This document shows positions 53,076 through 54,556 of a DNA stretch of 64,000 nucleotides, in pieces (position 1 is the stretch's first letter; each line of letters begins with the position of its first letter). Source of the DNA: Myxococcales bacterium (lineage in GTDB: Bacteria; Myxococcota_A; Polyangia; Fen-1088); the NCBI GenBank assembly GCA_022184915.1, contig JAGTJU010000004.1:416057-480056 (forward strand). The letters run 5' to 3'. Made by a program: the position numbers and the translations under genes. The notes under the pieces are model-generated. The model was not told where the DNA came from. It made no database searches and was given only the letters and a program-made list of their open reading frames with translations.

Positions 53076-54107
53076 ATGGCTAGTCTCGCTGACGTGGAAC
53101 TGCGCATGAGGGTGCTCCGGCGAGGTGCGAGAGGAGAAGACGTCTTGCTGTGGCAATTCTTCCTCACACGCTTGAGGGCACGGCCGGATGCGAAGTTTTC
53201 GACGGCTGCCCTCGTGCTTGACGGCATCTTCGGCAAGGAGACCCGTCGGGCGACAGTCGCATTCCAGCTCCGTTTCAATCTGAGACCGGATGGCGTCGTG
53301 GGTCCGAAGACGTACGGGGCTGCCCGGGAGCTTGGGTTTGGTAAGGACCGGGTCGAGGGCCACCTCGCTCCGTTCTTGGGACCATTCGCAAACCCGATCG
53401 GTTCTTCGCCTCCGCCTATGCTCGCAAGCCCGGAGGGGGCTGCTGCGCCGGCTCCGGCTCCGGGAAGTAAGAACACGCGGGGCGTGTCATGGAGGCGATT
53501 GCGGGCGGAGTCTTGGACGACTCTGCCAGGGGTCATGAAGGGCCTCACCGGTTCTAATTCGGTGTTTCAGCTCCTGCGAGATGGTGCGGGCGACTACATT
53601 TATGACGAGTACTCGGTGGTGGTTGAAGTCATGCCGGCGGACAAGACGGCAGAGCAGTTCCTGGCGGATATGGCGATGGACCTTAATGGAACGATCAACA
53701 ATCCAGACTTCGACACGATCAACGTGTTCAGGCGACGTAGGAAGGGCTCTCCGGAAGTGGGAGAAATCATCGACATCGACATCCTGGGCCCCGAGAACGG
53801 GTCCGTCATGCTGGTGGAGAGGGCACCCGACCATTTCGTTTTCCAAACCGTCGACTGCGAGCCGTACGGATCGCATCCTGAAAACGGCTCTCGGGAGTTT
53901 GGATTTGAGCGGCTGGGTGGTGGTCGCTTCCGCTTCTATACTCGCGGGGTGAGCCGGCCTGGAAATTTCATCACTCGACTGGCTGGCGCCATTCCTCAAC
54001 GGAAGGGCTGGACGAATTTGATGCTCGGGATCGCCGCAGGAATCAACAGGCTTGGCGGACGTTCCCCCGGTCAGGTGCGGATTGCGAAGGAGAACCGGCC
54101 CGAATGA
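53076..54107 (+). CDS. peptidoglycan-binding-domain (PG_binding_1) protein with uncharacterised C-terminal domain, no signal peptide
   Basis: 344 aa from MASLADVEL. N-terminal LLWQFFLTRL...DGIFGKETRRATVAFQLRFNLRPDGVVGPKTYGAAREL matches the PGBD repeat. The C-terminal ~230 aa is unknown. Confidence 0.55.
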   Translation: MASLADVELRMRVLRRGARGEDVLLWQFFLTRLRARPDAKFSTAALVLDGIFGKETRRATVAFQLRFNLRPDGVVGPKTYGAARELGFGKDRVEGHLAPFLGPFANPIGSSPPPMLASPEGAAAPAPAPGSKNTRGVSWRRLRAESWTTLPGVMKGLTGSNSVFQLLRDGAGDYIYDEYSVVVEVMPADKTAEQFLADMAMDLNGTINNPDFDTINVFRRRRKGSPEVGEIIDIDILGPENGSVMLVERAPDHFVFQTVDCEPYGSHPENGSREFGFERLGGGRFRFYTRGVSRPGNFITRLAGAIPQRKGWTNLMLGIAAGINRLGGRSPGQVRIAKENRPE

Positions 54108-54556
54108 CGCCAACTGGGGACGCCGGTGTTGATGTCCGGTCCCGTTGGGGGGGGGCGATGCTCGGCGTTCTCGTCGGAGCTGGGATCGCGGCCAACGGGT
54201 TCCTTCATGCGTACGACACGAGTTCTTGGGCGCCGGCCTCCCTGCTGTCCCTGGTCTCGGCCAGCGCAGCGTTCCTGCTGTTCCGCAAGGGCCTGGTGCG
54301 CTTCGGTAGCGACCGCGATGGTGCCTCGGTCACCGCTGCGTGGGCCACAATTTCTTGGCATGCGGTTCCATTGTCGCAGGTCCCTTACCTTGGGTTCTTC
54401 TTGATTCCGCCAGAAATACTGGCCGCCACGGTCATCGCACGGAAGAAGCAGCGGAAGCTGGGTTTTGGGATGCTTCTGATTCTATCCGCTATTGTCCGCA
54501 TGGGATCCATTGCGTGTGGGTACGCCCTGCGCGCGCTCTGGCGTCTCGCTCCTTAG
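54104..54556 (+). CDS. small multi-pass membrane protein, translationally coupled to the PG-binding protein
   Basis: 150 aa with 3-4 predicted TM helices (LGVLVGAGIAANGF, LLSLVSASAAFLLF, YLGFFLIPPEILAATVIA, FGMLLILSAIV). ATGA overlap with the upstream stop. Confidence 0.5.
   Translation: MTPTGDAGVDVRSRWGGAMLGVLVGAGIAANGFLHAYDTSSWAPASLLSLVSASAAFLLFRKGLVRFGSDRDGASVTAAWATISWHAVPLSQVPYLGFFLIPPEILAATVIARKKQRKLGFGMLLILSAIVRMGSIACGYALRALWRLAP

Follow-up and report, generated by a model that had tools for sequence, protein, structure and literature searches.

Toxins of extracellular contractile injection systems (eCIS) have a published architecture in which a DUF4157 N-terminus is followed by a C-terminal toxin (Geller et al. 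2021, PMC8213781). Toxin tips with a START-like helix-grip fold have been predicted before, as have transmembrane (TM) and lipoprotein products conferring immunity to toxins directed at lipids (Burroughs et al. 2025, PMC12419801), and the helix-grip fold classically binds hydrophobic ligands (PMC13525633). A further family, DUF1990 (PF09348), takes in the chloroplast outer-envelope protein Oep23; its sole experimental datum is the in-vitro channel activity of refolded Oep23 (PMC4331141). Here we compare these systems with a pair of genes from a Myxococcales metagenome-assembled genome (assembly GCA_022184915.1), located in a 64,000-nucleotide (nt) stretch of contig JAGTJU010000004.1 (positions 416,057 to 480,056 of the forward strand; hereafter the window, with coordinates counted from its first nucleotide). 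Gene 1 encodes a protein with an N-terminal PG_binding_1 (peptidoglycan-binding) domain and a domain formed by its last ~210 residues, which we call X; gene 2 encodes a small membrane protein, referred to as the partner.

Genes 1 and 2 are the first two members of a conserved cassette of three tightly coupled genes, encoding a PG_binding_1-X protein, a five-helix membrane protein, and a DUF1990 protein. This cassette is undescribed in the literature searched, and the partner family is unannotated. X is not a muralytic enzyme but a helix-grip domain, probably a distant relative of DUF1990, and is without a Pfam family of its own. Our best reading, which we advance tentatively, is that the gene 1 protein is an envelope-targeted, lipid-directed effector and that gene 2 encodes its membrane protective partner.

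Organization of the gene pair

The preliminary description of this DNA reported a PG_binding_1 protein without a signal peptide, overlapping by ATGA with a small polytopic membrane protein, and both open reading frames (ORFs) are present as described: the TGA stop of gene 1 (54105-54107) overlaps the ATG of gene 2 (54104-54106). The plus-strand ORF of gene 1 (52935..54107) offers possible starts at GTG 52935, ATG 53076, and ATG 53106. Because full-length homologues open with MRxLKRGxRGEDV, equivalent to ATG 53106, we consider this the conserved start, giving 333 aa; the length of 344 aa given earlier needs correction, as even ATG 53076 gives a product of 343 aa. For both genes, the NCBI start probably lies too far 3': that of gene 1 (P0001; TTG 53145, 320 aa) falls inside the PG-binding domain, and that of the partner (P0076; 54158, 132 aa versus 150 aa) drops the predicted cytoplasmic tail. 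A promoter and terminator scan of 52300-55000 detected nothing.

A signal peptide is absent from the gene 1 protein with every possible start, none of which yields a hydrophobic N-terminus (N-terminal maximum hydropathy ≤1.67). The PG_binding_1-X family as a whole likewise has no signal peptide, its members opening directly with the PG-binding domain. A Pfam scan of the gene 1 protein returned a single PG_binding_1 match (PF01471, E 2e-8, above the gathering threshold) and no other family, so the repeat previously seen here is one domain only; NCBIfam gave only weak matches, confined to the PG-binding region. In the AlphaFold2 (AF2) model (predicted local distance difference test [pLDDT] 88.8; predicted template modelling score 0.83), this domain and X are joined by the linker SSPPPMLASPEGAAAPAPAPG.

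The X domain adopts a helix-grip fold

A search of 5.8 billion proteins recovered 75 relatives of the gene 1 protein. X has the SRPBCC/START helix-grip fold, with the beta-alpha-alpha-beta6-alpha topology of this superfamily and a long C-terminal helix. The family shares the motifs D-E-Y-S, H-P-E-x-G-S-R-E-F-G-F, and Y-T-R-G-x-S-R-P, and its invariant or near-invariant residues include D167, E168, Y169, H257, P258, E259, G261, R263, E264, F265, Y278, T279, and R280 (numbered from the conserved start, in the 333-aa protein); the gene 1 protein keeps all family-invariant residues as well as the listed near-invariant ones. Lysozyme, transglycosylase, amidase, and NlpC/P60 folds are all missing from the structural matches of X, and a viral structure library agrees.

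These observations bear on the proposal, made in the preliminary description, that the pair is a remnant lysis cassette (endolysin plus holin) of a phage. That description named two findings that would count against it: a C-terminal domain with no hydrolase-like fold, and a partner conserved with unrelated genes. The C-terminal domain indeed has a helix-grip fold and no hydrolase-like fold, while the second finding does not apply: rather than accompanying unrelated genes, the partner is strictly co-conserved with the PG_binding_1-X gene (see below). A signal-less N-terminal PG_binding_1 domain is typical of endolysins, and a small membrane protein is adjacent, both as expected of such a cassette. 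Against this, the C-terminal domain is not muralytic, PHROGs endolysin matches cover only PG-binding residues 1-80 of the gene 1 protein, the partner has no holin match, and no phage genes adjoin the pair, whose neighbours are insertion sequence (IS), defence, and sigma-factor debris. Holins are diverse, and missing similarity to holin families is no proof against a holin. Relatives of X or of the partner are absent from 2.9 million viral contigs (IMG/VR), and among 50,697 phage genomes (INPHARED) matches are only to the PG-binding residues. We regard the lysis-cassette idea as effectively refuted and give it hardly any credence; likewise, the "peptidoglycan hydrolase-like" annotation labels carried by PG_binding_1-X proteins are unfounded.

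Several profile comparisons connect X to DUF1990. The gene 1 protein scores 14.2 bits (E 0.048) against PF09348, short of the gathering threshold of 23 bits, and sub-threshold matches to the same profile region occur in 22 of 72 X-family members (best E 1.7e-4). Alignment of X with DUF1990 sequences by hhalign spans 110 columns (score 24.2, E 0.008-0.014) and puts the D-x-Y-S and G-H-x-E-x-G-xx-F motifs of the two families in register; 20 shuffled controls scored 11.3-19.5 and one reversed control 16.6. Thus, judged from these profiles, X and DUF1990 are probably homologous without Pfam membership of X. A sequence search of the PDB found no DUF1990 structure.

The membrane partner and the three-gene cassette

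The partner was previously described as having four TM segments, a count that topology prediction revises to five helices (14-33, 42-66, 71-86, 96-115, and 121-148; AF2, pLDDT 83.6, with hydropathy also examined). Loops 61-76 and 113-121 are K/R-rich, which argues for an N-in topology; in this model the conserved residues Y37/D38 and W85-Q92-Y95-G97-P102-E104 are predicted to lie at the periplasmic face. A single-sequence search with the partner retrieved nothing but itself. The neighbourhoods of gene 1 homologues, in turn, have a gene of 140-167 aa in the equivalent position, and its products are 24-35% identical to the window partner, with 11-13 invariant residues. The recurrence of such homologues at the equivalent site of independent loci marks the 150-aa ORF as genuine, and not as a chance reading frame. 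Both alignments of the family share 11 invariant residues (G27, Y37, D38, L64, W85, Q92, Y95, G97, P102, E104, and R132), and the window partner retains all of them. Five family members have no PHROGs, Pfam, or NCBIfam match, and the partner belongs to no known family.

Matches to the partner hidden Markov model (HMM) occur only directly 3' of PG_binding_1-type X genes, at eight distinct loci (the window, L003, L006, L007, L013, L015/L029, L030, and L033), with none in about 15 loci with standalone, eCIS_core-type, or other X genes. Searches starting from the partner gave the same picture. A reverse profile search of an indexed database found seven proteins, a metagenome scan six loci, and a HMMER search of all 1.84 billion representatives just 70 members, all single-domain and 52-211 aa long (mostly 130-170 aa). 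Where the contig suffices, the loci recovered in this way have PG_binding_1-X upstream, where reached, and DUF1990 downstream, with the exceptions of P0082 (ambiguous) and L037 (a truncated remnant).

This distribution also fits a dedicated export pair, in which the partner would act as a holin-like or private translocator that takes the PG-binding protein, itself devoid of a signal peptide, through the inner membrane, perhaps along with DUF1990, as in holin/endolysin-type (type 10) secretion. The partner occurs strictly with the one architecture that needs access to peptidoglycan yet has no signal peptide, never with standalone X or with X types carried by eCIS or a type VI secretion system (T6SS), and genes 1 and 2 are translationally coupled. 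We nevertheless rate such an export function as quite unlikely.

The third gene of the cassette is a canonical DUF1990 gene (PF09348, E ~1e-25), found 3' of the partner in L003, L006, L007, L015/L029, L030, L032, and L033, overlapping it by up to 13 nt or separated from it by at most ~50 nt; in L013 a DUF1990 fragment takes its place. All cassette loci with an assigned taxonomy belong, to date, to Myxococcota. It is rare, with only two PG-binding-type X loci in 185,579 species genomes, and the neighbourhoods around the cassette loci are not conserved. Among loci, X averages 57% identity and the partner 42%; identities of DUF1990 between distinct loci span 44% to 66%. In a mirror-tree style check, X and partner identities correlate (r 0.87), a value that mainly reflects shared ancestry and does not discriminate among hypotheses.

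The window alone lacks a DUF1990 gene, and its cassette copy is therefore truncated. A tblastn search with the DUF1990 partners for a gene or remnant found nothing better than E 0.5 in the whole window. The breakpoint carries a short helix-turn-helix/transposase-like remnant in frame 1 (ETVSALCEEYRIQPSVFYQRQKAALENL); this remnant has no Pfam match, so the transposase-like label is provisional. The same truncated arrangement is present in two independent read sets (L001 and L002). Without one of its three conserved components the window copy may be impaired, and both remaining genes keep every invariant residue despite the loss of DUF1990. The word "remnant" in the preliminary description is thus apt with regard to the missing third gene, but not as applied to a lysis cassette.

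Other contexts of the X domain

X is a shuffled C-terminal module shared among several N-terminal trafficking or anchoring modules. Its contexts comprise PG_binding_1, eCIS_core, a GNQAVQR-type N-terminus, VWD/RGM_C, Big_5/TSP3, a TM-anchored form, and standalone proteins. PG_binding_1-X proteins are ~330-340 aa long, or ~520-556 aa with an extra N-terminal region, and standalone X proteins 211-228 aa. In P0020, P0021, and P0024 (L013 8001-9671) the extra region, which comprises ~220 aa before PG_binding_1, is unmatched in Pfam and may serve in trafficking or adhesion.

Fusions of eCIS_core/DUF4157 (PF13699) to X were found in P0051, P0058, P0061, and P0065, as well as in L021, L024, and L026. 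One of these, P0051 (L010), adjoins eCIS sheath, tube, Pvc16_N, and AAA genes. At L021, the eCIS_core-X gene (3216-5060) is followed by a canonical DUF1990 gene (5095-5703) without a membrane partner, and DUF1990 therefore tracks X in a second architecture; it follows X in PG-binding types and in this one eCIS_core type. In their main text, the eCIS toxin papers checked (including PMC8213781) mention neither DUF1990 nor SRPBCC.

A standalone X is encoded in a T6SS cluster of Azospirillum argentinense Az39 (WP_144243666.1, ABAZ39_RS35925; 216 aa, 42% identical to the window X, annotated as hypothetical). Its gene lies on plasmid p3 (L038; NZ_CP007796.1 635670-636320), between tssH/hcp and tssG and 43 nt 3' of hcp. 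A size of 216 aa suits cargo of the Hcp lumen. X also occurs in surface proteins, namely a Nostocales VWD/RGM_C protein and a 1,284-aa Verrucomicrobia ORF with Big_5 and TSP3. At L023 an RHS protein is encoded downstream of the X gene. In L029/L015, from one Myxococcales lineage, DUF2169 and Tox-PAAR-like genes (L029 7687-8736 and 8715-9095), both T6SS-associated, lie ~1.7 kb 3' of the cassette.

A candidate envelope-directed effector

We tentatively consider X to be effector-type based on its DUF4157/eCIS_core fusions, its linkage to hcp, and its surface-protein contexts. An accessory or mobile character is indicated by the rarity of PG-binding-type loci, their variable neighbourhoods, low GC content at third codon positions (GC3), and the PAAR-like neighbours at L029. 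In the proposed mechanism, X would bind or modify a lipidic component of the envelope, for example a carrier lipid or phospholipid, acting via a polar pocket formed from the conserved D-x-Y of strand 1 and H-x-E of strand 6, and the PG_binding_1 domain would tether this version of X at the bacterial cell wall. The partner would shield the inner membrane of the producer as an immunity-like factor, or else provide a docking site for the effector, and DUF1990, a probable paralogue with the same motifs, would serve as a second, cytoplasmic partner.

A number of observations weigh against this proposal. A cognate immunity protein usually accompanies its toxin domain, yet the partner goes with the PG-binding architecture and not with X. 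Instead of being hypervariable, it co-diverges with X and shows moderate conservation (mean identity 42%, with invariant polar residues). The gene 1 protein has neither a signal peptide nor a recognised trafficking domain. DUF1990 keeps the motifs of X and is for that reason not an obvious inert decoy, and the link between X and DUF1990 falls below the Pfam threshold. No immunity gene adjoins the hcp-linked X gene of Az39, and most standalone X genes occur among unrelated housekeeping genes with no conserved partner. The window itself contains no T6SS or eCIS genes; linkage to a secretion or injection apparatus is seen for relatives of X (eCIS at L010, T6SS in Az39, and PAAR-like/DUF2169 at L029). 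The polymorphic toxin system put forward in the preliminary description finds partial support in the shuffling of X onto eCIS_core/DUF4157, in one case at an eCIS locus, and in its solitary occurrence beside hcp. The partner is strictly adjacent to the PG_binding_1-X gene but, unlike a textbook immunity protein, tracks the PG-binding architecture and is not hypervariable.

The facts that count as weaknesses here fit the export pair discussed above almost as well, and equally a non-toxic role in which wall-anchored and cytoplasmic helix-grip proteins, together with a membrane protein, serve to bind, pass on, or detect some hydrophobic compound; in contractile-injection contexts, X would then be scavenging-type cargo and not a toxin. 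Such ligand handling agrees with the classic function of the fold as a binder of hydrophobic ligands (PMC13525633), with the co-divergence of the three genes as a stable unit with conserved residues, with standalone X genes that have no immunity partners, and with the motifs that X and DUF1990 share. It is harder to reconcile with the fusion to eCIS_core/DUF4157, a hallmark of injected toxins (PMC8213781), with a cassette that is very rare, patchy, variable in neighbourhood, and situated in an island, or with the lack of a signal peptide in both helix-grip proteins. We judge this role unlikely and place the envelope-directed effector ahead of it as a working interpretation. A small share of probability goes to explanations other than those weighed in this study.

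A broader form of the effector proposal, which strikes us as somewhat doubtful, is that X and canonical DUF1990 together form an unrecognised helix-grip effector family, delivered by eCIS or T6SS or anchored to peptidoglycan, that would target an envelope lipid, such as a polyprenyl carrier or lipid II, and attack or sequester it via the D-x-Y/H-x-E pocket, with the five-helix protein as a new membrane immunity factor. If so, this would provide the first functional handle on DUF1990, plant Oep23 included. If the narrower effector interpretation is correct, eCIS and T6SS alike would gain X as a new cargo domain, and the partner would be a new small membrane protection or docking protein. To our knowledge, the helix-grip fold as a toxin has been predicted only and never demonstrated. 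X would then link an orphan Pfam family, DUF1990/Oep23, which extends from bacteria to chloroplasts, to inter-bacterial conflict or envelope lipid biology, and ABAZ39_RS35925, beside hcp in Az39, offers a cultured, tractable test case.

Surroundings of the pair

The pair sits in an island of IS and defence-gene debris with split extracytoplasmic function (ECF) sigma genes (Table 1). The GC3 of the pair is 0.69-0.71, compared with 0.82-0.90 in core genes of the housekeeping half of the window, which holds menaquinone/futalosine genes, succinyl-CoA ligase, malate dehydrogenase, and ExbBD. Over 34000-62000, GC3 is about 0.60-0.76 versus 0.82-0.90 over 1-33000, a drop that suggests a large acquired island; a few ORFs of the second half, such as the helicase and AbiEi copies (0.85-0.86), are high-GC3 exceptions. 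The two genes had been described as embedded between sigma fragments. This is accurate upstream, where the Sigma70_r2 fragment abuts the pair, whereas the downstream sigma gene lies 1.2 kb away.

Table 1. Features of the gene pair and its surroundings, in window coordinates
Feature	Coordinates	Strand	Remarks
Gene 1, PG_binding_1-linker-X protein	53106..54107	+	333 aa from conserved start; 75 homologues
PG_binding_1 domain	53106..53345	+	aa 1-80; three-helix bundle
Pro/Ala-rich flexible linker	53346..53465	+	aa ~81-120; pLDDT <50 at residues 95-112
X domain	53466..54104	+	aa ~121-333; helix-grip (START/SRPBCC-like)
Gene 2, small five-helix membrane protein	54104..54556	+	150 aa; translationally coupled to gene 1 by ATGA
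Breakpoint, third cassette gene (DUF1990) expected but missing	54557..54750	+	tblastn; translation
ECF sigma fragment, region 2 only	52762-53109	+	PF04542, E 2e-10, no region 4; runs into gene 1 start
Second damaged ECF sigma gene	~55650-55748 and 55783-56364		N-terminus (…FEHHRPSLMGLAYRLLGS) in one frame, region 4 + SnoaL_2 in another
DDE_3/IS630-like insertion sequence	36294-37406	-	
IS66 insertion sequence (TnpB + DDE)	44177-46295	-	
IS3 insertion sequence (orfA + rve)	46535-48087	-	
Intact helicase, PADLOC candidate defence system PDC-S41	38216-40309	+	end-to-end match, E 4e-161
AbiEii fragment and AbiEi gene near helicase	42904-43218 and 43215-43871	-	

Given these neighbours, the pair could be imagined as an abortive-infection-type defence, in which phage would trigger a cytoplasmic effector directed at wall or lipid, together with its membrane partner, to damage the envelope of their own host. 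The region does hold AbiEi/AbiEii, the PDC-S41 candidate defence helicase, and insertion sequences, and toxin domains are often common to several conflict systems. PADLOC, however, matched no known defence system to the pair, the other cassette loci lie outside defence islands, and no sensor component is evident, so that we hold this explanation to be very unlikely.

Just 5' of the pair, 50378-51060 and 51607-52314 form a degraded direct duplicate of 38898-39582 and 43164-43871 (89-96% identity). The duplicated region encodes a Schlafen-group-3-like helicase and AbiEi; the second-copy helicase is broken across frames, whereas both copies retain an intact AbiEi ORF (218 aa). Two minus-strand ORFs of unusually low GC (0.57 and 0.52) separate the IS3 element from the duplicated helicase remnant, one T2SS-G pseudopilin-like (49131-49523) and the other of 257 aa with no family match (49511-50284). 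ARAGORN calls a 93-nt "tRNA-Asn" at 46209-46301, almost wholly inside the IS66 TnpB ORF, and this call is probably spurious. Further downstream, a subtilase (-), a 370-aa ORF without a recorded family match, and a radical SAM/SPASM protein occur together at 59509-63813 and could form a peptide-modification cluster.

Comparison with known systems

Endolysin/holin cassettes resemble the pair in placing a signal-less N-terminal PG_binding_1 domain next to a small membrane protein. They differ from it in that the pair has no muralytic domain, holin similarity, or phage association.

The likeness of X to DUF1990 lies in an ordered series of motifs, with h-D-x-Y-S in the first strand, G-H-x-E-x-G-xx-F in a later strand, and S-x-P-G after the next, and the third position of the cassette is taken by a canonical DUF1990 gene. 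X, in contrast, has its own strongly conserved signature (HPENGSREFGFE, FYTRGVSRP), and effector-type fusions are found for X and unreported for DUF1990.

Among delivered effectors, Hcp-linked T6SS cargo is resembled by the standalone X of Az39, a candidate cargo encoded directly 3' of hcp, while the window version is without T6SS context. With eCIS toxins (PMC8213781), relatives of X share the placement at the C-terminus, where the "toxin" is found, behind DUF4157 and a long linker, in one case beside a complete eCIS locus; the gene 1 protein has PG_binding_1 in place of DUF4157, and no eCIS is present in the window. Finally, the Cystatin-type polymorphic toxins (PMC12419801) have a Cystatin-like lipoprotein module at the N-terminus where the gene 1 protein has PG_binding_1, and their immunity families are mainly BamE-like, unlike the partner. 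They nevertheless resemble the pair on both sides: their predicted lipid-directed toxin tip is a helix-grip domain, likened to X by fold, and their immunity proteins are predicted to reside in the membrane or periplasm, one of them with a 4-TM core.

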